The position numbers and the translations under genes were made by a program. The notes beneath the pieces were generated by a model. That model searched no databases and was not told the origin of the DNA. It worked only from the letters and a program-made list of their open reading frames with translations. A DNA stretch of 64,000 nt from Clostridiales bacterium (GTDB lineage Bacteria > Bacillota > Clostridia > Caldicoprobacterales > UBA3941), in assembly GCA_012518535.1 (NCBI GenBank), contig JAAYRX010000220.1:23510-87509 (forward strand), given 5' to 3'. Numbering within the stretch: the first letter of the stretch is position 1; each line of letters begins with the position of its first letter. Positions 4,062-64,000 of the stretch are shown here, piece after piece.

Positions 4062-4148
4062 GCGGATGTGGCGGAACTGGCAGACGCGTACGGTTGAGGG
4101 CCGTATGATAATTATATCATGTGGGTTCGAGTCCCACCATCCGCACCA
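4062..4148 (+). tRNA. tRNA-Leu (anticodon GAG), type II with long variable arm, CCA encoded
   Basis: Hand-folded cloverleaf. Acceptor GCGGATG/CATCCGC; anticodon stem TACGG/CCGTA with loop TTGAGGG; variable arm TGATA..TATCA; T-arm GTGGG-TTCGAGT-CCCAC; ends in CCA. Confidence 0.9.
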
Positions 4149-49817: not shown

Positions 49818-52079
49818 ATGGAACTAAGGAAGTTATTGAACCCACAACAGAGACAAGCTGTGCTCCATACAGAAGGCCCCCTTCTGGTACTCGCAGGGGC
49901 GGGATCCGGAAAAACCCGGGTTCTTACATATAGGGTTGCACATTTGGTAGAAGACCTGGGGGTCAGCCCCGAGAATATCTTGGCAATTACCTTTACAAAC
50001 AAGGCCGCCAGGGAGATGAAGGAGAGGATCCATAACCTGATAGGAGAAAAGAGTCATGATATCTGGATAAGCACCTTTCATTCCACCTGTGTCAGGATAC
50101 TCAGAAGAGAAATTGATAAGATAGGCTTTACAAGGAATTTCGTCATTTATGATGCAGAGGATCAGCTGGCACTCATAAGGGATTGTATAAAAGAACTGGA
50201 CTTAAGTGAAAAGTATTATAACGCCAAGGATATGCGCTCTAAGATTGGTCAGCTTAAAGACCAGATAATAAGTCCTGGTGAATATAAAAGCGAGTCAAGA
50301 GGTCAGTTCCGGGAAGAAAGAATCGCTGATTTATATGAACTGTACCAGAATAGGCTCACAAAGAACAATGCTCTTGATTTTGACGATCTGATAAACAGGA
50401 CCTTGGAACTTTTCTATCTAAGACCTGATGTACTGGATTACTATTCATTCAGATTTCAATATATTCATGTGGACGAATATCAGGATACCAACCACGCTCA
50501 ATATATGTTGGTCAAGCTGTTATCGGCGAAACATCAAAATCTATGTGTCGTAGGTGATGATGACCAATCCATATATGGATGGAGAGGAGCAGATATAAGG
50601 AATATTTTGGATTTTGAAAGAGATTTTCCCAATGCCAGAGTGATTAAACTGGAAGAAAACTACAGGTCAACCCAAATGATCCTGGATGCCGCCAACAGCA
50701 TCATACTAAACAACAGCGGCCGGAAAGAAAAAAGGCTGTGGACTCAAAAAAACCGTGGTGAGAAAATAGCCGTATACAAGCTGGCGGATGAACATCGGGA
50801 AGCGGATATGATCTGTCAGCATATCCATGGACATATAGTTAAAGATGATAAATCCCCTGGGGATTTTGCTATTCTCTATAGGACCAATGCTCAATCTCGG
50901 GTTATTGAGGACGCCCTTATGAGATATGGTATTCCCTATCGCATGTACGGAGGTTTACGGTTTTATGATAGGAAGGAGATAAAGGATATCATAGCCTATC
51001 TAAGGGTGGTTGCAAACCCAGCAGACGATATTAGCATAAAAAGAATTATTAATGTTCCAAGGCGGGGCATAGGTAGTGTTACTTTGGGTAATTTGGAGGA
51101 AATATCTATAAGGGAAGATGAAAGCATTTTTAGTGTTATTCTGGATTTGGATGACTATGATGAAATTACCACCAGAATAAGGAAAAAGATTAAGGCATTT
51201 GGAGATGTAATATCAAACCTTATAGCAATGAAAGAGATTATGCCTTTAACAGAATTTATTGAAGCCTTATTGGATTACACGGGTTATGAAAAAGCCCTAA
51301 AGGAAGAAAGGACACTGGAAGCGGAATCCAGGCTGGAAAATATCAAGGAATTTATATCTGCGGCCAGAGATTTTCAGAGGGATAATGAGGGTGCCGGACT
51401 AGTGGAGTTTCTAGAGAATCTTGCCCTGGTGACTGATCTGGATAGTATGGGAGAAGGCCAACCTGCGGTTAGTATGATGACCATGCACTCGGCTAAGGGC
51501 TTGGAATTTCCGATAGTTTTTATTGCAGGTATGGAGGAATACCTGTTTCCACATTCCAGATCTATGGATTCGGAACAGGAGATGGAGGAGGAAAGGCGGT
51601 TATGCTATGTTGGCATAACCAGGGCTAAAGAGCGGCTTTATTTGTCCTTTGCGGCTCAACGCAATATATTTGGAAGCTATAATCGTAATGCTCCATCACG
51701 GTTTTTAAACGAGATAACCCAGGATTTAATCGAGTATACCGACCAATCCCCGGGAGAAATGTGGAACACATATTGCAACAAAGACGAGGGCAATATCGTC
51801 AAAGGACATATGGGACACGGGTGGAATAGATCAGGGTCAGGGGCTATGGAGGTCCTACAGACTCCTTTAAAATCATCGGGGAACAACAGGGATAACAAAA
51901 GTGGTAACAGGATTATCCGGGATTTTACTCTGGGCCAAAAAATCATACATAAGAAATTTGGTAAAGGTACGATCGTAGCTATGAGTGGAAGTGGAGATGA
52001 TCAGGAGCTGAAGATTGCATTTGAGCAGGGTGGAATAAGAAGCTTTATGGCAGCATATGCCCCGTTAAAGAAACTGTAG
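49818..52079 (+). CDS. pcrA: ATP-dependent DNA helicase PcrA (UvrD family)
   Basis: Walker A AGAGSGKT, motif II VDEYQDTN and TMHSAKGLEF. 753 aa. Confidence 0.93.
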   Translation: MELRKLLNPQQRQAVLHTEGPLLVLAGAGSGKTRVLTYRVAHLVEDLGVSPENILAITFTNKAAREMKERIHNLIGEKSHDIWISTFHSTCVRILRREIDKIGFTRNFVIYDAEDQLALIRDCIKELDLSEKYYNAKDMRSKIGQLKDQIISPGEYKSESRGQFREERIADLYELYQNRLTKNNALDFDDLINRTLELFYLRPDVLDYYSFRFQYIHVDEYQDTNHAQYMLVKLLSAKHQNLCVVGDDDQSIYGWRGADIRNILDFERDFPNARVIKLEENYRSTQMILDAANSIILNNSGRKEKRLWTQKNRGEKIAVYKLADEHREADMICQHIHGHIVKDDKSPGDFAILYRTNAQSRVIEDALMRYGIPYRMYGGLRFYDRKEIKDIIAYLRVVANPADDISIKRIINVPRRGIGSVTLGNLEEISIREDESIFSVILDLDDYDEITTRIRKKIKAFGDVISNLIAMKEIMPLTEFIEALLDYTGYEKALKEERTLEAESRLENIKEFISAARDFQRDNEGAGLVEFLENLALVTDLDSMGEGQPAVSMMTMHSAKGLEFPIVFIAGMEEYLFPHSRSMDSEQEMEEERRLCYVGITRAKERLYLSFAAQRNIFGSYNRNAPSRFLNEITQDLIEYTDQSPGEMWNTYCNKDEGNIVKGHMGHGWNRSGSGAMEVLQTPLKSSGNNRDNKSGNRIIRDFTLGQKIIHKKFGKGTIVAMSGSGDDQELKIAFEQGGIRSFMAAYAPLKKL

Positions 52080-54101
<2,022 letters not shown>

Positions 54102-54225
54102 TTGGTTTATAATGGTAATATGTGTCCCTGCTATTTATTAACATAGTGTAAACATGGCAAAACATCTTGCATTTATATAATAGTTTTAGTAGAATGTTAA
54201 CAGTTAAGACAAGGGGTATCAGAAC

Positions 54226-55848
54226 ATGCGTATAGGCAGCAGAAGGATTAGTAAGAGATTTTTTATAATTGTATTTGTTGTTATACTATTGATTGCAACC
54301 AGGATCTATGCTTCAAATAAGGTTTATCGAAGCGTGACATTGGAGGCAGGGATAGATGCCACCGATTTATCCCATTTTATTAAGGGCGATAATGTAGAAG
54401 GCACTTTTGTAACGGACATGTCAACCGTTGATACATCTAAACCCGGTCAATACAAGATAAAAATACGCATCGGGAGAAGGGTATACACGTCAACTCTCAG
54501 TATAGTGGACACCATCCCTCCAACCGCTGAGGTGTTAGATCAACAAATACCCTTTGGAAAGACACTAGAGGCAAGTTCCTTTGTAAAGGATGTAGTTGAT
54601 GCAACAGCGGTAGAGATTAGTTATTATGAGAAACCCGATTTCGAATTTATAGGGGTTCAGGATGTTATTATAATACTAAAAGACGCAGGAGATAATGAGT
54701 ATCAGCTTACAGCCAAGCTTTCTATTGGGATGGTACATGAACTGGTGGAAGTTGGGGTAGGTACTGAATCGCTGGATATTGGGCTGTTTTTTATGGATGA
54801 AGATTTTACCGGAGACTTTGTTACCGATATTTCCGCCATAGACATGAACTATCCGGGTGAGTATGATATTGCAATAAATTGTAACGGAAGGGAATTCACA
54901 TCGAGACTGCAAATAATTGATAATATACCACCTAAGGCTGATATAATACAGCAAGAAATATGGCTTGGTGAAGAACTGGATGCTGACAACTTTGTTGAGA
55001 ACATTGAAGATCACTCGGAAGTGACAGTTTCCTATAAAGAAAGACCCGATTTCAATAATGTAGGTTCTCAGGAAGTATCCATTTTATTGATGGATGCCAG
55101 TGGAAACCAGACAGAGCTGAAAGCACCTCTTATAATATTGGAGGATACAGAACCGCCGGTAATCAAAGGGGACAACGAAAAACTGGTTTATATAGGAGAA
55201 AAGGTGTCATACAGAAAACATGTCACCGTCACCGATAATAGGGATGAAGACGTGGATCTGGATATAGATAGCAGTGCAGTAAATCTTAAGAGGCCTGGTA
55301 GTTATCCGGTAATATACAAGGCAACGGATTCCTCAGGCAATATCTCAACAAAAACTATTAACTTCATAGTAAAGGAAAAACCCAAAAATTATGTAAGTGC
55401 AGATGAAGTTAATGTTTTAGCGGACCAAATTTTGGCAAAAATAATTAACGAGGGTATGTCACAAAAGCAAAAGGCAAGGGCAATATATGATTGGACTAGA
55501 GCCCATATTAAATATGTTAATGACTATGATAACAATACGGATTGGGTAAGGGCTGCCTACGATGGAATAAAGAATGCCAAAGGAGATTGTTACGCCTATT
55601 TCGGAACTGCTAAGGCACTTTTAACCAGAGCGGGAATAGAGAATTTGGATATCGTTAAAAAGGGCGGTGGGCATTATTGGAGCATGGTCAATCTGGGGAA
55701 CGGTTGGTATCATTTCGATACGACGCCTAGAAGAACCGGTGGAGAATTCTTTATGTTAACTGATGCCCAGCTGGAAGCGTATTCGAGAAAGAACAAGAAC
55801 AGTCATGTATGGGATAAAAGCAAATATCCTACTACCCCGGAAGAATAG
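54226..55848 (+). CDS. TM-anchored Ig-like / transglutaminase-like protein (paralog 2)
   Basis: Collinear with 28208-29863: VTLEAGIDATDLSHFIK.., DTIPPTA / DNIPPKA / DTEPPVI boundaries, and a GDCYAYF .. HYWS .. HFDT core. Confidence 0.7.
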   Translation: MRIGSRRISKRFFIIVFVVILLIATRIYASNKVYRSVTLEAGIDATDLSHFIKGDNVEGTFVTDMSTVDTSKPGQYKIKIRIGRRVYTSTLSIVDTIPPTAEVLDQQIPFGKTLEASSFVKDVVDATAVEISYYEKPDFEFIGVQDVIIILKDAGDNEYQLTAKLSIGMVHELVEVGVGTESLDIGLFFMDEDFTGDFVTDISAIDMNYPGEYDIAINCNGREFTSRLQIIDNIPPKADIIQQEIWLGEELDADNFVENIEDHSEVTVSYKERPDFNNVGSQEVSILLMDASGNQTELKAPLIILEDTEPPVIKGDNEKLVYIGEKVSYRKHVTVTDNRDEDVDLDIDSSAVNLKRPGSYPVIYKATDSSGNISTKTINFIVKEKPKNYVSADEVNVLADQILAKIINEGMSQKQKARAIYDWTRAHIKYVNDYDNNTDWVRAAYDGIKNAKGDCYAYFGTAKALLTRAGIENLDIVKKGGGHYWSMVNLGNGWYHFDTTPRRTGGEFFMLTDAQLEAYSRKNKNSHVWDKSKYPTTPEE

Positions 55849-55883
55849 CTATGTAATTCGTGACGAAGAGGGATGATCAAGGG

Positions 55884-56606
55884 ATGAGATTAGGGGTTAT
55901 TGGTGGGTTAGGGCCTATGGCAACGGCGTATTTTATTGAACTCATAGTTAATATGACAGATGCACAAAACGACCAGGACCACCTGGATATGATAGTATTC
56001 AATTGCCCTTCTATACCCGACAGAACAAAATATATATTGGGTGAAAGTAAGGAAAGTCCTGTCAAAGCCATGGCGTTAATAGGAAAACGGCTGGCGGAGC
56101 TGGGAGCAGATCATATTTCTATTCCGTGTATAACAGCACATTATTTTTATAATGATCTAGTAAGGCTTATAGACGTTCCCATTCTAGATGCTGTGACTGA
56201 AACAGCGAATCATTTAAAGGAGCAGGGCGTTAAAAAAGTGGGCATTCTTGCCACTGATGGGACTTTAGCCGGCGGTCTGTTTCAGGACAGGTTATCCTCT
56301 GTCGGAATTGATCACATCATTCCCTCCAGCTATGCACAAAGGGGAGTGATGAAGATCATTTATGATGATATCAAGGCAGGTCGCCCTGCCAATATAGAAC
56401 TTTTTGGCAAAATCACAAGGGAATTGCGAGACAGCGGTGCAGAAGCAATAATTCTGGGTTGTACTGAATTATCACTAATAAAAAGGGACTTTTCTATAGG
56501 TGCAGGCTATATAGATGTGATGGAGGTACTGGCCAAGGCATCTATTCTTAGCTGTAATAGGTTACTAAAAAAGCAATATTACAGTTTGATTTCAAATAGA
56601 GGGTGA
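55884..56606 (+). CDS. Asp/Glu/hydantoin-family (cofactor-independent, two-thiol) amino-acid racemase
   Basis: MRLGVIGGLGPMAT start. Catalytic Cys motifs IPCITAH and LGCTEL. GTG 55860 is an alternative start. A 4-nt gap separates it from the next gene. Confidence 0.8.
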   Translation: MRLGVIGGLGPMATAYFIELIVNMTDAQNDQDHLDMIVFNCPSIPDRTKYILGESKESPVKAMALIGKRLAELGADHISIPCITAHYFYNDLVRLIDVPILDAVTETANHLKEQGVKKVGILATDGTLAGGLFQDRLSSVGIDHIIPSSYAQRGVMKIIYDDIKAGRPANIELFGKITRELRDSGAEAIILGCTELSLIKRDFSIGAGYIDVMEVLAKASILSCNRLLKKQYYSLISNRG

Positions 56607-56610
56607 AGAC

Positions 56611-58137
56611 ATGCAAAATAATATACTGGAATACTTGGATTATACTGTAAAGAGGGTTCCCGAAAAGATCGCCTATTCCAATGGTGAAACCGGAATAAGT
56701 TTTCGTGAGGTTTATGATCAGGCAAGGGCCATAGGTACTTTTTTGAATCGTCAAGGCGTCTACAAAGAACCTGTGGTTGTGTTTATGAATAGGCATCCCA
56801 AAGCCATCGTGGCTTTTTATGGGGTGGTCTATGCCGGCAACTTTTATGTACCAATTGATGAGGAGATGCCCCGTTTCCGTATTGAGCTTATAATGGAGAA
56901 TCTAAACCCCAGGGCTATAATCTGTGATGAGACCACAAAAGACATCGTAGAAACCTTTCAATATGATGGGGAGATATATCTCTATGACGATATTGTCAAA
57001 ACCCCTATAGACGAGGATGTTATTGATAGGATCCGACAAGCCTCAATAGATACAGATCCTATATATGTAGTATTTACATCAGGTTCGACGGGAATACCAA
57101 AGGGGGTAGTAGCTTGTCATCGCTCCGTGATAGACTATATTGAGCACTTATCCGAGGTTTTGGAATTTAATGAGGATACAGTCTTTGGGAATCAAACTCC
57201 TTTGTATTTTGATGCTTGCCTGAAGGAGCTGTACCCTACCCTGAAGTTTGGTTCAACTGCCTATATCATACCCAAAAACCTGTTTATGTTCCCCATTAGA
57301 CTTGTTGAATTCTTGAATGAACACAGGATTAACACCATATGCTGGGTGGTTTCTGCTCTGACAATGATATCGGCTTTTGGTGTGCTGGACGAGACGGTTC
57401 CAGAGCATCTTCATACTGTTGCCTTTGGCAGCGAGGTCTTTCCAATGAAGCAGTTTAATCTTTGGAGAAAGGCCTTACCCAATGCCAAATTTGTAAATCT
57501 TTACGGGCCTACGGAAGCTACGGGTATGAGCTGTTATTATATAGTGGATCGAGATTTTGGTGATGATGAGGTCCTGCCCATAGGTAGACCCTTTAGGAAC
57601 ACCGATATCATATTACTGGACGAAAACAATCGGATTCCAGCCAAGGGTGAAGTAGGGGAGATATGTATAAGGGGTACATCCCTAACCATGGGATATTATA
57701 ACGATCCGGAAAGGACCAGGGAGGTATTTGTACAGAATCCGTTAAACAATGCTTATCCTGAACTCATATACCGGACAGGGGATCTAGGCAGGTATAACGA
57801 TAGAGGAGAATTGATGTTTATATCACGTATAGATCATCAGATTAAACATATGGGTCATCGCATCGAATTGGGGGAAATCGAATATAACGTGAATTTGATA
57901 GAAGGTATTAAGAGTGCCTGCTGTATTTATCGGGAAGAAACCGAGAAGATAGAACTTTATTATGTTGGTGACATAGATTCAAAGGATTTAGCCATTGCTT
58001 TGAAAAAAAGGCTTCCTAGGTATATGGTTCCGAACATTTTAAGGGCCTTGGATGAGATGCCTTTAACCGCCAACAAGAAGATAGATCGGGTTTTCTTAAA
58101 AGAACATTATGCTAAGAATAAAAGGGGGACCAAATAA
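56611..58137 (+). CDS. stand-alone amino-acid adenylation enzyme (DltA-like carrier-protein ligase)
   Basis: ANL/A-domain cores VVFTSGSTGIPKGV, LYGPTEAT, YRTGDLG, GHRIELGEIE and PLTANKKIDR. FDAC retains the alpha-amino-binding Asp. Confidence 0.85.
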   Translation: MQNNILEYLDYTVKRVPEKIAYSNGETGISFREVYDQARAIGTFLNRQGVYKEPVVVFMNRHPKAIVAFYGVVYAGNFYVPIDEEMPRFRIELIMENLNPRAIICDETTKDIVETFQYDGEIYLYDDIVKTPIDEDVIDRIRQASIDTDPIYVVFTSGSTGIPKGVVACHRSVIDYIEHLSEVLEFNEDTVFGNQTPLYFDACLKELYPTLKFGSTAYIIPKNLFMFPIRLVEFLNEHRINTICWVVSALTMISAFGVLDETVPEHLHTVAFGSEVFPMKQFNLWRKALPNAKFVNLYGPTEATGMSCYYIVDRDFGDDEVLPIGRPFRNTDIILLDENNRIPAKGEVGEICIRGTSLTMGYYNDPERTREVFVQNPLNNAYPELIYRTGDLGRYNDRGELMFISRIDHQIKHMGHRIELGEIEYNVNLIEGIKSACCIYREETEKIELYYVGDIDSKDLAIALKKRLPRYMVPNILRALDEMPLTANKKIDRVFLKEHYAKNKRGTK

Positions 58138-58138
58138 A

Positions 58139-58363
58139 ATGGAAGAATTATTAGAGATTTTAGAGGAAATGCATCCCGATGTGGATTTTACAACTTGTGA
58201 TACTTTAATTGATAGCAACATATTAGATTCATTTGATATAATTGCTTTGATATCAGAGATCAAGTTGGAATTTGGAGTTACGATACCACCGGACGAAATA
58301 ATACCGGAAAACTTTAATTCCGCCAAGGCAATGTATGAACTAATTGAGCGTCTATCGGACTAG
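58139..58363 (+). CDS. small carrier protein (DltC/ACP-like)
   Basis: 74 aa from ATG 58139 (GGGGGA upstream). Phosphopantetheine-site-like ILDSFDIIAL. Confidence 0.75.
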   Translation: MEELLEILEEMHPDVDFTTCDTLIDSNILDSFDIIALISEIKLEFGVTIPPDEIIPENFNSAKAMYELIERLSD

Positions 58364-58381
58364 AATTAACAGGGGGATAAT

Positions 58382-59974
58382 ATGCTGTTTGCATCTTATG
58401 GTTTTATAGCTTTTATATCAATTTTATTCATAGTATATTACCTTATTCCCAAGAAACATCAGTGGAAGTTGCTTCTATTTGCCAGCTATGTTTTTTATTT
58501 GTTTGCCGGTCCTAAATATATACTTTATATTGTATTTACAACCGTTTCCACCTATATAATCAGCTTAAGGATTGATAAGCTGAATCAAACCCAGGCCCAG
58601 TACTTGGCCAAGCATAAGAAGGACCTCTCGAGGGCTGATAAAAGGGAATATAGGGATATGATGAAATATAGGATGCGGAGATGGCTGGTTGCATGTCTGC
58701 TACTAAACTTCGGGATATTGGCGGTAGTGAAATACTCTAACTTCGCCATAGCTAACTTAAACGCTATATCCCGAGCCTTCGGGGGGCAAGGCCAGTTATC
58801 CTTTTTAAATATAGCCCTTCCAATGGGTATTTCTTTCTACACCTTTCAGACTATGGGCTATATTATAGATGTATTTAGGGGCAAGTATTCACCGGAGAAG
58901 AATATTTTCAAACTTGCTTTGTTTGTATCCTTCTTCCCTCAACTTGTACAAGGGCCAATAAGTAGATTTGATGACCTGTCCAAAACACTCTTCAAAGAGC
59001 ATAGCTTTGAACATAGGAGTTTCAGTTTTGGCATTCAGAGGATAATGTGGGGATACTTTAAGAAGCTGGTTATAGCGGATCGCATTCTGGTCGCTGTCAA
59101 TACCATAATACGGGATCCGGAGATGTACCAGGGGGCTTTTGCTTTGGTGGGGATGCTTTTTTATGCATTTCAACTCTATGCTGATTTCACGGGTGGTATT
59201 GATATTACCATAGGTATAGCCCAGGTATTAGGTATAGAGGTCCAGGAGAACTTTAACAGACCTTATTTTTCAAAATCCATAGCGGAGTATTGGAGAAGAT
59301 GGCATATTACTTTGGGTACATGGTTTAAGGATTATTTATTTTACCCCATATCTGTCAGTAAGCCTATGATGAGGGTGTTCAAGTTTACCAGGGAACGCTT
59401 TGGCGGCGCAATAGGTAGGCGTATACCGGTATATATATCCACTATTACCGTCTGGTTTGTAACCGGCATATGGCATGGCTCCAGTTGGAACTTTATAGCC
59501 TGGGGTCTGGCAAATTGCGTGGTAATTATTATATCCCAGGAACTAGAACCCTTTTATGCATGGTTCCATAGTAAGTTTAATGTCAGGAATGCCTTTGGCT
59601 TTCGTTTGTTCCAAGTGGTACGTACTGTACTTCTCATGAGCTCTATAAGAATGTTTGATTGCTATAGGGATGTACCTACCACTTTTAGAATGTTCGGTTC
59701 CATGTTTACGGTCTTCAATTACCGTGAGTTGTTTGGGGGAGTGCTTTTAGATCTTGGGCTCAACATGGCAGATTATTGCATACTCCTTATAGGACTTATT
59801 CTGCTCCTTGGCGTAAGCCTTGCTCAGAGAAAGGGTAGTGTAAGATCAAGGCTCGCCCAAGAGCCTGAACCGCTTCGTTATGCAGTATATTCCTTTATGT
59901 TCATTATGATTCTTATTTTTGGAGCCTATGGTGTGGGTTATGATTCCAGCCAGTTTATATACAATCAGTTCTAG
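58382..59974 (+). CDS. MBOAT family membrane O-acyltransferase (DltB/AlgI-like)
   Basis: Polytopic. WRRWHITLGTWFKDYLFYP and the conserved-His region GIWHGSSWNF. Confidence 0.85.
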   Translation: MLFASYGFIAFISILFIVYYLIPKKHQWKLLLFASYVFYLFAGPKYILYIVFTTVSTYIISLRIDKLNQTQAQYLAKHKKDLSRADKREYRDMMKYRMRRWLVACLLLNFGILAVVKYSNFAIANLNAISRAFGGQGQLSFLNIALPMGISFYTFQTMGYIIDVFRGKYSPEKNIFKLALFVSFFPQLVQGPISRFDDLSKTLFKEHSFEHRSFSFGIQRIMWGYFKKLVIADRILVAVNTIIRDPEMYQGAFALVGMLFYAFQLYADFTGGIDITIGIAQVLGIEVQENFNRPYFSKSIAEYWRRWHITLGTWFKDYLFYPISVSKPMMRVFKFTRERFGGAIGRRIPVYISTITVWFVTGIWHGSSWNFIAWGLANCVVIIISQELEPFYAWFHSKFNVRNAFGFRLFQVVRTVLLMSSIRMFDCYRDVPTTFRMFGSMFTVFNYRELFGGVLLDLGLNMADYCILLIGLILLLGVSLAQRKGSVRSRLAQEPEPLRYAVYSFMFIMILIFGAYGVGYDSSQFIYNQF

Positions 59975-59983
59975 GAGGGTGTT

Positions 59984-61057
59984 ATGAATAAAAAAAGGAT
60001 AGGACTAAAAATTGCGACAATTTGTTTTTTATTTATAACATTATGGTTTTTACAAAAGTTGATGGTGCCTAAATATGTCACCGCCATAGTCGAAGGCTCC
60101 TTAATTGAAGAGTATTATCATGAGGAGACAGATCATGATGTGGTTTTTATTGGGGATTGTGAGGTTTACGAGAACATTTCGCCCATCACCTTATGGGAGA
60201 AATATGGAATTACCAGCTTTATTCGTGGGGGTGCTCAACAGCTTATATGGCAATCATACTATCTGTTAGAGGAGACATTAAAGTATGAGAAGCCAAAAGT
60301 GGTCGTATTCAATGTTCTGGCTATGAAATATGATGAGCCTCAGAAGGAAGCCTATAATCGCCTAAATCTGGATGGAATGAAGCTTTCTATGGAAAAAATA
60401 AAAGCTATAAAGGCTTCGATGATGGATGATGAGAATTTGATTGAGTATATATTTCCATTACTCAGGTATCATTCCAGATGGAGTGAGCTGACAAGCGAGG
60501 ATTTCAAATACCTTTTCAAGAAGGACAAGATTTCCCATAATGGATACTACATGAGGGTGGATGTTGAACCCGTGAAATCAATTCCTAAAGGGAGAAAACT
60601 CTCAAGCTACCAGTTCGGCGAAAGATCATATTATTATTTAGACCGCATGGTAGAGCTATGTAAAGATAACGATATAGATTTGGTACTGATGAAAGCTCCT
60701 AGCATATATCCCTATTGGTATGATGAATGGGATGAGCAAATGCGGGAGTATGCCAATAAACATGACCTGATGTATATAAACTTCCTTGATCTGATCGATG
60801 AGGTAGGTATTGATTTCAATGTAGATACCTATGATGCCGGTCTCCACCTGAACTTATCTGGGGCAGAGAAGTTGGCAGTATATTTCGGCGATATTTTAAG
60901 GAAAACTTATGGTTTGGAAGATAGAAGAGGGGACGAGGAACTAAAAAAAGTATGGGATGAAAAGGTAGAATTCTATTATAGTATGAAGGAACAGCAATTG
61001 AGGGAGCTCGAGGAATACGGCTATCTCAAGAGCTTGGGCGTAGAGAAACGGGAATAG
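59984..61057 (+). CDS. TM-anchored extracytoplasmic SGNH/DltD-like protein (tentative)
   Basis: N-terminal TM helix. Block-I-like VVFIGDCEV and block-V-like DAGLHLNLSG. Sits in the position occupied by DltD/AlgJ-type partners. Confidence 0.5.
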   Translation: MNKKRIGLKIATICFLFITLWFLQKLMVPKYVTAIVEGSLIEEYYHEETDHDVVFIGDCEVYENISPITLWEKYGITSFIRGGAQQLIWQSYYLLEETLKYEKPKVVVFNVLAMKYDEPQKEAYNRLNLDGMKLSMEKIKAIKASMMDDENLIEYIFPLLRYHSRWSELTSEDFKYLFKKDKISHNGYYMRVDVEPVKSIPKGRKLSSYQFGERSYYYLDRMVELCKDNDIDLVLMKAPSIYPYWYDEWDEQMREYANKHDLMYINFLDLIDEVGIDFNVDTYDAGLHLNLSGAEKLAVYFGDILRKTYGLEDRRGDEELKKVWDEKVEFYYSMKEQQLRELEEYGYLKSLGVEKRE

Positions 61058-61136
61058 GTCCAGGTTATAACCGAGATACGATTAAGCATGACGATCATGT
61101 GGTATTGAACTATGGAATTTAAGGGAGAGAATAGAG

Positions 61137-61724
61137 ATGAAAAGGATACTTATATTATCATTGGCCTTACTCTTATTACTTGCTGCTTGTAGTAAGGGCG
61201 GAAACACAGCCGGGGATGTTACTGGAGACATGCCTGTTGATGGCAATAAAGATAATTCACAGGATGTTCAAGAGGGTCAGAATCCAGACAATAACCAGGA
61301 AAATCAGGAAGTTAATGAAGAAAAAGGATATGAATTTGTATTTGATGGCGTAACCATAGCGATGCATTCCAAAATGGAACTCATCCTTGAGAAATTGGGT
61401 GAGCCCATGGAGTACTTTGAAGCAGAAAGTTGTGCTTTACCCGGTATGGAGAAAATTTATAGCTATAGTGGTTTTGAAATACTCACCTATGAGAAAGAGG
61501 GAGTTGACCATGTATTGTCAGTGGTGATTCTGGACGATAGCGTTTCAACCAAAGAAGGAGTCTACCTATATTCCAATCTTAATAGTTTGATAGAAATCTA
61601 TGGTGATGATTATACTAAAGAACTCAACACCTATAAATACGAATCAGGTCAATCTCAATTGGTATTTTTGGTAGAGGACGAAGAGGTAACGTCCATTGAG
61701 TATTTAGCGAATATGGAAAAATAA
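61137..61724 (+). CDS. hypothetical lipoprotein
   Basis: Lipobox LLAACS, an acidic Asn/Gln-rich linker and an unassigned C-terminal domain. Confidence 0.6.
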   Translation: MKRILILSLALLLLLAACSKGGNTAGDVTGDMPVDGNKDNSQDVQEGQNPDNNQENQEVNEEKGYEFVFDGVTIAMHSKMELILEKLGEPMEYFEAESCALPGMEKIYSYSGFEILTYEKEGVDHVLSVVILDDSVSTKEGVYLYSNLNSLIEIYGDDYTKELNTYKYESGQSQLVFLVEDEEVTSIEYLANMEK

Positions 61725-61757
61725 GTTATAGGTATGTCCCTTAATGACTATAAGAGT

Positions 61758-61789
61758 AACCCCTATCTATGGAAAAGGGGTTTTTTTTT
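61758..61789 (+). terminator. rho-independent terminator of the Dlt-like cluster
   Basis: AACCCCT / AGGGGTT stem followed by a T9 run. Confidence 0.8.
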
Positions 61790-61906
61790 GGTTAAACTTG
61801 ATTTTTCCGACAAAATGTGCTTTAATTATGTAAAGTGCTTTACAATTCTATAAAGAAAATTTCATAGAATTGTAATAGTAGATAAATATTAAAAGGGGGT
61901 GAAGAT

Positions 61907-64000
61907 GTGTCAAGGAGAATGACAACAAGGGTATTTATTTTCAGTTTGATAACCTTGATATTCTTAGGGCAAGTTCTGTTACCAAACAATCAACTAAATG
62001 CCGCATCCTCTACTATTACTCAAACCTTGCGTCAGGGCAGTAGGGGCGGCCAGGTGAAGATCCTACAGGAAAAGCTGAATTCCCTAGGGTTTAATGCAGG
62101 TAAAGTGGACGGATCCTTTGGACCAAAAACAAGGGCCGCGGTACTTGCATTTCAGAAAGCTCACGGTTTGGCAAGAGATGGAGTAGTAGGTCCCGCAACA
62201 AGGGCAAAGCTAAATTCAATTACACAGGCTGAACCTAAGCAAAAAGATACAAAACCAGGGGTGCAAAATTCGGACTCATCACGCGGAAACAGTTTACCAA
62301 AAGTTACAACAACCCTAAGACGAGGCAGTAAGGGGACCCAGGTAAAGTATTTACAGCAGAAACTTAACGCGCTAGGTTTCAATGTTGGGAAGGTGGACGG
62401 ATCCTTTGGTTCAAAGACCCTGGCAGGGGTTCGTGCCTTTCAAAAGGCCAACGGTCTTGCCGTAGATGGGGTAGTAGGTCCTGCCACGAGGGCAAAGCTT
62501 AATTCAATTACACCAACTAAGCCTAAGCAGGAAGATCCAAAACCTGAAGACCCAAAGCCTGAAGATCCGAAGCCGGAGACTCCACCTAAAAATGAAATAC
62601 CGCCCGTTACCCAGACTCTAAGACGAGGCAGTAAGGGGACCCAGGTAAAGTATTTACAGCAGAAACTTAACGCATTAGGTTTCAATGTTGGGAAGGTGGA
62701 CGGCTCCTTTGGTTCAAAGACCCTGGCAGGGGTTCGAGCCTTTCAAAAGGCTAAAGGTCTTGCCGTGGATGGGGTAGTAGGTCCGGCCACAAGGGCAAAG
62801 CTTAATTCAATTACAACAACTAAACCTAAGCAGGAAGACCCAAAAGCCGAAGATCCGAAGCCTAAAGATCCAAAGCCGGAGACTCCACCCAAAAATGAAA
62901 TACCGCCCGTTACCCAGACTCTGAGACGAGGCAGTAAGGGGACCCAGGTAAAGTACCTGCAGCAGAAACTCAATGCACTAGGCTTTAACGTAGGAGAGGT
63001 GGACGGCTCCTTTGGTTCAAAGACCCTGGCAGGGGTTCGTGCCTTTCAAAAGGCCAACGGTCTTGCCGTAGATGGGGTAGTGGGTCCTGCCACGAGGGCA
63101 AAGCTTAATTCAATTACACCAACTAAGCCTAAGCAGGAAGATCCAAAACCTGAAGACCCAAAGCCCGAAGATCCGAAGCCTAAAGATCCAAAGCCCGAAG
63201 ATCCAAAGCCCGAAGATCCAAAGCCGGAGACTCCACCCAAAAATGAAATACCACCTGTTACTCAGACCCTACGTAAGGGAGATAAGGGTACCCAGGTGAA
63301 GTACTTACAGGAAAAGCTGAATTACTTGGGATTTGATGTGGGTGAAGTAGATGGTTCCTTTGGCTCAAAAACATTAGCCGGTGTCCTTGCTTTTCAAGGG
63401 GCTTATGGTTTGGACAGAGATGGAGTAGTAGGTCCGGCCACAAGGGCAAAGCTCAACTCTGCAACGCCGGATACGTTACCGAAAGAACCTGAATATAAAG
63501 AATTTATGCCGGCTAAAGGTCAACTTTCGGGTAAAACTATAATTCTGGATCCCGGCCACGGTGGTGCCGATTCTGGAGCGGCTTGGAACGGTAACCTGGA
63601 AAAGAATTTTAATCTTGATATGGCCTTGAGGCTCAAACGTATGTTGGAGCATGCCGGTGCTAAGGTCCTTATGACCAGAACAAAAGATGAATACTCATAT
63701 CTCTACTATAGGTCAGCTTTTGTCAATAAATACATAGTAGATCTGGAAATAAAGGATCAGGAAGCTCAAAAGAAGGCATTGACAGATGAAATGGATGACA
63801 AGACCGCTGAATCCCTAGCTAAGGGCAAAGAGTTGGATGCTAAGAAAGATGAGTTTATTATCATCCAAAATAGAATTAGCCAGCTCCAACTGGAGATACA
63901 GGCCAAAGAGGCCGACCTTGCAGGTGCCGAGGCCAATTTAGGACAGCTAAATGATGAATTAGATGTCTTGATTTCACAGATGAACGATATGGGCTATGAC
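61907..64000 (+). CDS. N-acetylmuramoyl-L-alanine amidase (Amidase_3) with five PG_binding_1 repeats; 3-prime end outside window
   Basis: Absent from the ORF track because it has no stop in the window. GTG 61907 lies 7 nt after GGGGG. Signal peptide. Five LRxGSxGxxVKxLQxKLNxLGF..DGxFGxKT..AVxxFQ units. Amidase start ILDPGHGGADSGA. Confidence 0.85.
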   Translation, partial: MSRRMTTRVFIFSLITLIFLGQVLLPNNQLNAASSTITQTLRQGSRGGQVKILQEKLNSLGFNAGKVDGSFGPKTRAAVLAFQKAHGLARDGVVGPATRAKLNSITQAEPKQKDTKPGVQNSDSSRGNSLPKVTTTLRRGSKGTQVKYLQQKLNALGFNVGKVDGSFGSKTLAGVRAFQKANGLAVDGVVGPATRAKLNSITPTKPKQEDPKPEDPKPEDPKPETPPKNEIPPVTQTLRRGSKGTQVKYLQQKLNALGFNVGKVDGSFGSKTLAGVRAFQKAKGLAVDGVVGPATRAKLNSITTTKPKQEDPKAEDPKPKDPKPETPPKNEIPPVTQTLRRGSKGTQVKYLQQKLNALGFNVGEVDGSFGSKTLAGVRAFQKANGLAVDGVVGPATRAKLNSITPTKPKQEDPKPEDPKPEDPKPKDPKPEDPKPEDPKPETPPKNEIPPVTQTLRKGDKGTQVKYLQEKLNYLGFDVGEVDGSFGSKTLAGVLAFQGAYGLDRDGVVGPATRAKLNSATPDTLPKEPEYKEFMPAKGQLSGKTIILDPGHGGADSGAAWNGNLEKNFNLDMALRLKRMLEHAGAKVLMTRTKDEYSYLYYRSAFVNKYIVDLEIKDQEAQKKALTDEMDDKTAESLAKGKELDAKKDEFIIIQNRISQLQLEIQAKEADLAGAEANLGQLNDELDVLISQMNDMGYD
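62318..63226 (+). repeat. three tandem ~303-nt near-identical coding repeats (PG-binding domain plus Pro-rich linker)
   Basis: AGACGAGGCAGTAAGGGGACCCAGGTAAAGTA recurs at 62318, 62621 and 62924. By eye roughly nine of ten positions are identical between units. Flanking copies 1 and 5 are more diverged. Confidence 0.85.
63137..63226 (+). repeat. 15-nt tandem repeat encoding (EDPKP)n linker
   Basis: Six consecutive GAAGATCCAAAGCCC-like units here, versus three in the equivalent linkers at about 62537 and 62840. Confidence 0.85.

Follow-up and report, generated by a model that had tools for sequence, protein, structure and literature searches.

The 64,000-nt stretch of Clostridiales bacterium contig JAAYRX010000220.1 analyzed here (the window, in whose positions all coordinates are given) carries on its + strand a cluster of genes predicted to activate an amino acid and transfer it to the cell envelope. 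A first-pass annotation had described six co-directional genes at 55884-61724, encoding a racemase, a stand-alone adenylation enzyme (A), a carrier protein (CP), an MBOAT protein, an SGNH-like protein, and a lipoprotein. Open reading frame (ORF) calls agreed, as all six were intact and on the + strand, and the gaps between them, given earlier as 1 to 79 nt, measured 4, 1, 18, 9, and 79 nt. The motifs that had been named were found, the racemase having PCITAH and GCTEL and the carrier DSFD, and the family assignments held, with Asp_Glu_race, AMP-binding, PP-binding, and MBOAT identified by Pfam and SGNH by fold. What had to be revised was the size of the unit, as a seventh gene, encoding a transglutaminase-like (TGase-like) protein and previously regarded as an envelope-related flank, is co-conserved with the six. 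The features of the locus, including a predicted pyridoxal phosphate (PLP)-independent racemase and domains modeled with AlphaFold2 (AF2), are as follows.

54154..54181, + strand: candidate sigma-70-like promoter, ATGGCA-16-TATAAT (consensus match of 10/12, weak evidence)
54226..55848, + strand: module gene 1, membrane-anchored extracytoplasmic protein with Ig-like and transglutaminase-core regions (Pfam, conserved triad)
55884..56606, + strand: predicted PLP-independent two-thiol aspartate-type racemase (TIGR00035, 1JFL alignment, adjoins the A gene)
56611..58137, + strand: stand-alone amino-acid adenylation enzyme (A), code DAKCAGLGMK (TIGR01733; code aligned to 1AMU/3E7W)
58139..58363, + strand: 74-amino-acid (aa) aminoacyl carrier protein (CP), phosphopantetheine site Ser31 in LDSFDI (PP-binding)
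58382..59974, + strand: 530-aa predicted PatA/AlgI-type MBOAT with a DltB-like core (Pfam MBOAT; DltB structure matches)
59954..59971, + strand: C-terminal hexapeptide FIYNQF of the MBOAT, Tyr527 being the predicted acyl acceptor (translation; family conservation)
59984..61057, + strand: N-terminally membrane-anchored SGNH-fold putative transferase, predicted Cys59-His288 pair (AF2 model, Foldseek)
60158..60160, + strand: codon of Cys59 at the predicted nucleophile position, GDC instead of GDS/GSS (translation FIGDCEV)
61137..61724, + strand: lipoprotein, lipobox LLAAC (lipobox; AF2 domain model)
61758..61789, + strand: intrinsic terminator with a 7-bp G+C-rich stem, an 11-nt loop, and T9 (sequence and folding)

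Two start sites required a choice. The racemase ORF could be extended to a GTG at 55860 (248 aa), with homologue alignment and independent gene calling favoring the ATG at 55884 (240 aa), and for the carrier protein an upstream ATG at 58109 overlaps the A gene, the homologues beginning at 58139.

Conservation and distribution of the seven genes

A search profile made from an alignment of close A-enzyme homologues was scanned over one genome per species, and relatives of the A enzyme were found to be encoded in at least 593 species-level genome stretches. Eighty loci, sharing 63 to 94% identity, were fetched, and their gene order was read by tblastn with the window proteins. The order TGase-like protein, racemase, A, CP, MBOAT, SGNH, lipoprotein recurred in most of the 80, an arrangement far beyond chance. 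The racemase gene was directly 5' of the A gene in 69 loci (4 nt apart in the window), co-occurrence of racemase, A enzyme, and MBOAT across genomes having been proposed as a check, and the TGase-like gene was commoner still, being found in 72 loci directly 5' of either the racemase or the A gene. When all ORFs of the 80 loci were clustered against one another, no further gene family appeared in more than 8 of the loci, and no acceptor-pathway, teichoic-acid, or polysaccharide gene was co-conserved; the module is thus self-contained and carries no hint of an acceptor pathway. The conserved unit consists of seven genes, the TGase-like gene included. The same clustering led to the rejection of a natural-product nonribosomal peptide synthetase (NRPS) fragment as an explanation, as no condensation domain, thioesterase domain, or further module was co-conserved.

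The module was identified in Lachnospiraceae (including Agathobacter, Blautia, Dorea, Mediterraneibacter, and Acetatifactor), Oscillospiraceae, Clostridiaceae, Tissierellaceae, Erysipelotrichaceae, and Paenibacillus. At 94% identity, a Caldicoprobacterales metagenome-assembled genome (L067) was nearest, and the complete genome of Anaerocolumna sedimenticola (CP048000.1, 1016850-1024493) carries the same seven genes, with the stop codon of the TGase-like gene overlapping the racemase start. In public annotations the products appear as "AMP-binding protein," "D-alanine--poly(phosphoribitol) ligase," "SGNH/GDSL hydrolase family protein," or "hypothetical protein," and full-text searches of the literature found no description of the seven-gene cluster.

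Variant arrangements were also present. In some Lachnospiraceae and Oscillospiraceae (L053, L079, L080, and L076) the module is split or rearranged, the TGase-like, racemase, A, and lipoprotein genes forming one block in split loci and the CP, MBOAT, and SGNH genes lying 4 to 7 kb upstream. L079 contains the MBOAT-SGNH set twice; in L046 a further MBOAT, 36% identical, lies 2 kb downstream. Three Paenibacillus loci (L016:6413-8901, L023:7471-8950, and L027) have no racemase gene adjacent to the A gene and instead carry, 1 to 3.6 kb upstream, two divergent Asp/Glu-racemase paralogues that are 37 to 40% identical and on opposite strands, with a response-regulator gene between them in L016. In these same loci the TGase-like protein is short (~322 aa) and without Ig-like domains.

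Racemase, adenylation enzyme, and carrier protein

The first-pass annotation had recognized an Asp/Glu-family racemase with both catalytic Cys motifs and had proposed comparing it with MurI and RacX/YgeA. The protein scored 139.9 bits against Pfam Asp_Glu_race and 220.6 bits against TIGR00035 (asp_race; cut-off, 93) and aligned over its full length with the aspartate racemase of P. horikoshii, 1JFL (E = 6e-53, 183 bits), while YgeA and MurI each gave only about 32 to 36 bits, making it aspartate-type by score. The catalytic residues Cys82 (in PCITAH) and Cys193 (in GCTEL), together with Arg47 (equivalent to P. horikoshii R48) and Lys164, were at least 95% conserved in the family. P. horikoshii R48 and K164 are the residues that bind the side-chain carboxylate in 1JFL and 2DX7. 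On the basis of the hidden Markov model scores, the two Cys, and the Arg and Lys, the protein is assigned as a PLP-independent aspartate-type racemase.

The A enzyme passed the generic amino-acid adenylation model TIGR01733 (331.5 bits; cut-off, 317.4) and did not reach the cut-off of the DltA equivalog TIGR01734 (274 bits; cut-off, 559.85). To compare its specificity residues with those of DltA, as had been proposed, GrsA-PheA (1AMU) and Bacillus subtilis DltA (3E7W) were used as references, their sequences having been checked against PDB. The ten-residue code read DAKCAGLGMK in the window family and DLMTMCTVAK in DltA, so that the two have in common only the universal D235 and K517 and differ at all eight variable positions, with Gly for Cys at position 301. 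The register of this code is ambiguous, as the first MAFFT alignment placed a gap after position 329 (giving ...LMS) and the gap-free realignment reported here gives ...LGM; the latter was chosen because it fits Val301 of DltA as a residue lining the substrate pocket. Across 76 family members, some of them from racemase-less loci, every code position, Lys239 included, showed at least 95% conservation.

For Lys239, Eppelmann and colleagues reportedly found in 2002 that it contacts the side-chain carboxylate in a Glu domain and that a K239Q change switches the domain to Gln. The window code has Ala236, Lys239, and Gly301 in common with the surfactin Glu code, DAKDLGVV (PMC10548584).

The 74-aa carrier protein with its DSFD serine site was confirmed at 58139-58363. 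It exceeded the cut-off of the PP-binding model (23.2 bits; cut-off, 20.8) and fell short of that of the DltC equivalog NF003464 (27.9 bits; cut-off, 68), and the serine motif xDSFDI was present in 74 of 79 homologues.

Extracytoplasmic components, relatives, and surroundings of the module

The MBOAT scored 55.7 bits in Pfam (cut-off, 27), and its catalytic core aligned with the DltB structures 6BUG and 8JEM (E about 4e-25). His308 in the motif RWH and His365 in the motif WHG are conserved, the latter aligning with the His of the DltB WHG motif. The score against the DltB equivalog TIGR04091 was 134 bits, with a cut-off of 375. At 530 aa it is longer than DltB (about 400 aa), with extra C-terminal hydrophobic segments and the terminal sequence FIYNQF, and the pattern F-I-Y-x-x-F was found in 74 of 75 family MBOATs. 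The Tyr of the FXYXXF motif is acylated in DltX and PatA and is an experimentally established acyl shuttle; MBOATs with the motif fused to them are acyl-CoA users that work with no carrier protein and typify non-Dlt MBOATs (PMC12148441). With FXYXXF fused to the MBOAT, no separate DltX microprotein is required. By sequence, the protein, described earlier as a 530-aa MBOAT, is PatA-type and not DltB-type.

The SGNH-like protein gave only a weak GDSL match in Pfam (E = 0.004), and searching PDB sequences with the family profile returned no relevant match. The fold, and the membrane anchor described earlier, were borne out by an AlphaFold model (pLDDT 75.7, pTM 0.79) consisting of an N-terminal helix at residues 3 to 27 followed by an SGNH fold, for which Foldseek matched GDSL hydrolases, TesA (TM 0.71), DltD (6PFX and 3BMA; E about 3e-4 to 7e-4), and PatB. 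The conserved SGNH blocks are GDC, G82, N110, and DxGLH, and Cys59 lies after strand 1, where helix 1 starts. Among 121 full-length superfamily representatives, the column of residue 59 holds Cys in the 30 nearest and Ser in the remaining 90, with Gly57 kept in 120 and His288 in 113; GDCEV was present in 64 of 67 family members. As Cys lies in a column that is Ser in 90 of the 121, Cys59 is taken to be the nucleophile position, and the Ser-to-Cys swap to be clade-specific. An hhalign comparison of the SGNH family with E. coli TesA gave a weak C-terminal match (probability, 0.65%) and was used solely to place His288. The protein would by prediction be catalytically competent. It adjoins the MBOAT in at least 64 of the 80 loci. 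Ser-type SGNH relatives that accompany an MBOAT alone were found inside polysaccharide clusters.

The TGase-like protein, which has an N-terminal anchor, matched Pfam Transglut_core (35.3 bits; cut-off, 23) and Bact_surface_Ig-like (41.6 bits), and its GDC..Y, H.W, and GWYH.D motifs (Cys-His-Asp) are conserved in the family. It has no sequence relative in PDB. It is assigned on this evidence to the transglutaminase-core superfamily (PF01841), with an intact triad, and is predicted to be a hydrolase or transferase. The lipoprotein, confirmed by its lipobox LLAAC at 61137-61724, matched no Pfam or NCBIfam family and consists of a disordered acidic linker and a tandem alpha/beta (helix-plus-sheet repeat) domain at residues 62 to 195 (AF2 pLDDT about 97). 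Weak fold matches of this domain to 4IFA, 4YGT, 3D4E, and 2QZB relate it to DUF4309/YjgB, BLIP-like, and YfeY proteins, and its SCA motif (S98, C99, and A100) is invariant. Natural fusions join each of the two proteins to SGNH: a Cys-type SGNH is fused to the lipoprotein domain in P0302, P0303, P0309, P0311, and P0315, and an SGNH is fused to the Ig-plus-transglutaminase region in P0304 and P0355, the fusion set also including L088:1231-2994. P0355 retains Ser (GDSDV), while the other fusions have GDCE. Judged from these fusions, the TGase-like protein and the lipoprotein belong to the same machine.

Sister clusters were found by a search of 1.84 billion representatives with the SGNH profile, followed by look-up of the genomic context. 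In the cluster at L086:4623-10294 (also L083:1-3248), genes for an A enzyme, a 75-aa CP, a 531-aa MBOAT ending in FVYMNF, and a Ser-type SGNH (FIGSSTV) are followed by one for a radical-SAM enzyme, which was best matched by glutamate 2,3-aminomutase (611 bits; cut-off, 650) as opposed to the lysine type (441 bits). The four core genes share 38 to 55% identity with those of the window, and the sister clade is without the racemase, the TGase-like gene, and the lipoprotein. Its A-domain code is DAIRIGIGVK, with Arg278. The two clades are alike in their four core genes, in a basic residue in the A pocket, and in an enzyme making an acidic nonproteinogenic amino acid; they differ in that the sister clade has an aminomutase for the racemase, Arg278 for Lys239, and a Ser nucleophile. 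This composition suggests that the sister cluster does envelope beta-glutamylation. As each clade appears to combine a maker of a nonproteinogenic acidic amino acid (D-Asp or beta-Glu) with a basic pocket residue, supply enzyme and basic pocket residue co-vary, and no other computational evidence supports as strongly the idea that the racemase feeds the pathway.

Upstream of the module lie housekeeping genes (within 49818-54101), a pcrA-like helicase (753 aa) and the NAD-dependent DNA ligase ligA (667 aa), and the promoter candidate is the only strong match within the 124-nt gap between ligA and the TGase-like gene. The strong terminator that had been noted after the lipoprotein gene was found as a hairpin, AACCCCU...AGGGGUU, followed by U9, and the 56-nt stretch that holds it (61745-61800) folds at -16.5 kcal/mol (z = -2.85); a consensus terminator scanner missed this hairpin because its loop exceeds 8 nt. 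Searches with Rfam and ARAGORN identified no riboswitch, T-box, or other leader in the window that would hint at a substrate, their single match being a tRNA-Leu(GAG) at 4062-4148, far upstream of the module. GC skew is positive almost throughout the window, consistent with leading-strand gene orientation. Downstream, a gene at 61907-64000 runs off the end of the window; its product has a signal peptide and an amidase_3-like domain (IILDPGHGGADSG), along with five PG_binding_1-like repeats kept apart by (EDPKP)n linkers that vary in length. In DNA the repeats are near-identical, giving rise to spurious minus-strand ORFs. This peptidoglycan (PG)-binding amidase is envelope-related, as the first-pass annotation had stated of both flanking genes, and was rejected as a member of the module, showing no co-conservation across the 80 loci; the TGase-like gene, the other supposed flank, is likewise envelope-related but is a member of the module.

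Predicted pathway and alternative readings

The cluster was compared with characterized systems. It is like Dlt in having a stand-alone A enzyme, a small CP, an MBOAT with a common catalytic His core, a membrane-anchored putative SGNH transferase, a Tyr acyl-shuttle hexapeptide, and, as predicted cargo, a nonproteinogenic D-amino acid. Unlike Dlt, it has a dedicated Asp-type racemase in the operon, an unrelated specificity code, no DltX microprotein (FXYXXF being fused to a longer MBOAT), Cys rather than Ser at the presumed nucleophile position of the DltD counterpart, and an added TGase-like enzyme and BLIP-like lipoprotein. None of the distinguishing features of canonical Dlt (those of DltA, its pocket, DltB, DltX, DltC, and DltD) was found, and by sequence the cluster falls outside the canonical dlt operons. 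A long MBOAT with added hydrophobic segments at its C terminus and a terminal FXYXXF, as PMC12148441 describes for the PatA type, and an adjacent extracytoplasmic SGNH partner are features it has in common with PatA/PatB (AlgI/AlgJ/AlgX and WssH/WssI), but those systems use acetyl-CoA without a carrier (PMC12148441), whereas the A enzyme and CP of the module would supply an aminoacyl thioester. The A and CP genes lie between those for the racemase and the MBOAT and are co-conserved with them, an arrangement that departs from the use of an acyl-CoA donor. The occurrence of a carrier protein and a fused shuttle motif in one system makes it a hybrid of two described architectures, with what is predicted to be a Dlt-like donor logic and a PatA/PatB-like MBOAT architecture, and a member of neither group.

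Two other systems bear comparison. In Lactococcus and Enterococcus, RacD/Asl, an aspartate racemase and a D-aspartate ligase, supply D-Asp for peptidoglycan cross-bridges, as reportedly described by Veiga and by Bellais in 2006. Asl is a cytoplasmic ATP-grasp ligase that acts on UDP-MurNAc-pentapeptide via the beta-carboxyl. The module is like RacD/Asl in that a PLP-independent Asp-type racemase is encoded beside a putative envelope D-Asp consumer and unlike it in that an A/CP/MBOAT export route activating the alpha-carboxyl would be used. AlmEFG of Vibrio cholerae employs a DltA-/DltC-like pair for the addition of glycine to lipid A, AlmG being a cytoplasmic-face acyltransferase; there, too, such a pair has been repurposed for an amino acid other than D-Ala, but AlmEFG is without MBOAT, SGNH, or racemase.

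Taken together, the seven genes are read, with moderate confidence, as a self-contained envelope-aminoacylation module, a Dlt and PatA/PatB hybrid, that would handle an acidic D-amino acid, most likely D-Asp. An acidic, non-alanine cargo is quite probable, and the choice of D-Asp specifically is tentative. The non-alanine D-aminoacylation suggested at the outset is thus well supported by the code, the racemase, and Lys239 for a non-Ala acidic cargo, which could be D-Asp, D-Glu, cysteate, or another acidic amino acid. In the cytoplasm, the two-thiol racemase would, judging from its family membership, convert L-Asp to D-Asp, and the A enzyme, with its Lys239 pocket, would activate the acidic amino acid via the alpha-carboxyl and charge Ser31 of the carrier with it in thioester linkage. 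At the membrane, by homology to DltB/DltX and PatA, His365 of the MBOAT would move the aminoacyl group off the carrier to Tyr527 in FIYNQF at the outer face. Outside, Cys59 of the SGNH protein would take the group as a thioester, not the usual serine ester, and pass it to an envelope acceptor, the TGase-like enzyme and the BLIP-like lipoprotein acting in the same complex, probably to complete the transfer, to edit or hydrolyze, or to bind the acceptor. Gene content and order, conservation, motifs, folds, and fusions are observed directly. Adenylation and loading on Ser31, the transfer to Tyr527, and the pick-up by the SGNH protein are predicted by homology to steps established by experiment; the D-Asp cargo, the Cys59 thioester, the roles of the TGase-like protein and the lipoprotein, and the acceptor are inferred only.

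Several observations weigh against this scheme. The racemase also passed the model of the cysteate racemase CuyB (202.6 bits; cut-off, 190), which itself belongs to the aspartate racemase family (PMC11193023), so that the safe wording is "Asp-like acidic amino acid," with D-cysteate or another acidic C3/C4 amino acid being possible. The window code is nearer the NRPS Glu code, with which it has D, A, K, and G in common, than the NRPS Asp code, DLTKVGHI (PMC10548584), with which only D and G are in common, and the stereoselectivity of an A domain is not readable from its sequence. In 11 of the 80 loci the racemase gene does not adjoin the A gene, 8 having none in the locus and the remaining 3 being the Paenibacillus loci with distant paralogues, and in the 8 the code is unchanged. 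For the SGNH protein, the residue three before His288, which would correspond to the catalytic Asp of TesA, is variable, and a near-invariant Asp284 is found four before. The CuyB score, the code, and the loci without a racemase would all fit the same machinery handling D-Glu, D-cysteate, a beta-substituted Asp, or L-Asp, the racemase being of broad specificity or acting on another acidic substrate. This is possible but unlikely, as MurI already makes D-Glu in essentially all bacteria, leaving a dedicated racemase unnecessary, the racemase scored 36 bits on the MurI model as opposed to 183 bits on the solved aspartate racemase, and the 80-locus clustering identified no cysteate-forming enzyme in the module. 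That the cluster is a divergent dlt paralogue D-alanylating some polymer, with the racemase as an unrelated passenger, is far more doubtful and is considered highly improbable. The JGI label of the A enzyme is "D-alanine--poly(phosphoribitol) ligase subunit 1," the nearest named NCBIfam families are DltA, DltB, and DltC, and DltD is among the SGNH fold matches, but the Dlt equivalogs were far under their cut-offs (274/560, 134/375, and 28/68 bits), the code departs from that of DltA at all variable positions, the MBOAT has a fused motif that DltB is without, and the racemase gene adjoins the A gene in 69 of the 80 loci, with 4-nt or overlapping spacing.

The linkage and the acceptor may also differ from the ester on a teichoic acid or polysaccharide that had been suggested at the outset. 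A thiol nucleophile together with a transglutaminase-fold partner would allow an amide linkage, and as the module is intact across lineages with different wall polymers and carries no polymer gene, a peptidoglycan-like universal acceptor is at least as plausible as teichoic acid. Amines of peptidoglycan, amino sugars, and proteins would be conceivable targets for an amide installed by the Cys-type SGNH and the TGase-like enzyme, and an aminoacylated lipid would be another conceivable product. The clade-specific swap to Cys, the co-conserved and sometimes fused enzyme with a Cys-His-Asp transglutaminase core, and the absence of both TGase-like protein and lipoprotein from the sister clade with its Ser-type SGNH would be consistent with this reading, which is nonetheless unlikely: it is purely inferential, O-acyl transfer can also run through thioester intermediates, transglutaminase-fold proteins are often plain hydrolases, so that the one here might act as an esterase in the manner of DltE, and the SGNH-transglutaminase fusion P0355 retains Ser. 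A bolder form of it, and a rather improbable one, would be an extracytoplasmic thiol relay running from the CP thioester to the MBOAT Tyr ester, the SGNH Cys thioester, and possibly the TGase Cys, with alpha-linked D-Asp finally amide-bonded to a universal acceptor, for example a stem-peptide amine of peptidoglycan or a de-N-acetylated sugar. If true, such a relay would be a new way to edit the wall outside the cell, and the sister system with beta-glutamate would point to a broader group of "acidic aminoacylation" pathways in Clostridia.

Dlt D-alanylation is the textbook means by which Gram-positive bacteria tune envelope charge, antimicrobial-peptide resistance, and interaction with the host. 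Under the reading preferred here, of a hybrid module handling an acidic D-amino acid, a large set of Firmicutes, among them Paenibacillus and the five Lachnospiraceae genera named above, which are abundant in the gut, may decorate the envelope differently, with an acidic, zwitterionic D-amino acid. The module would break the stated rule that MBOATs with a fused shuttle motif use acyl-CoA and no carrier protein (PMC12148441). It offers a putative SGNH transferase in which, by natural variation, Cys replaces Ser, and ties a transglutaminase fold and a BLIP-like domain to envelope acylation. If the reading is correct, a function would be provided for genes numbering in the thousands whose present annotation is "AMP-binding," "SGNH hydrolase," or "hypothetical lipoprotein."

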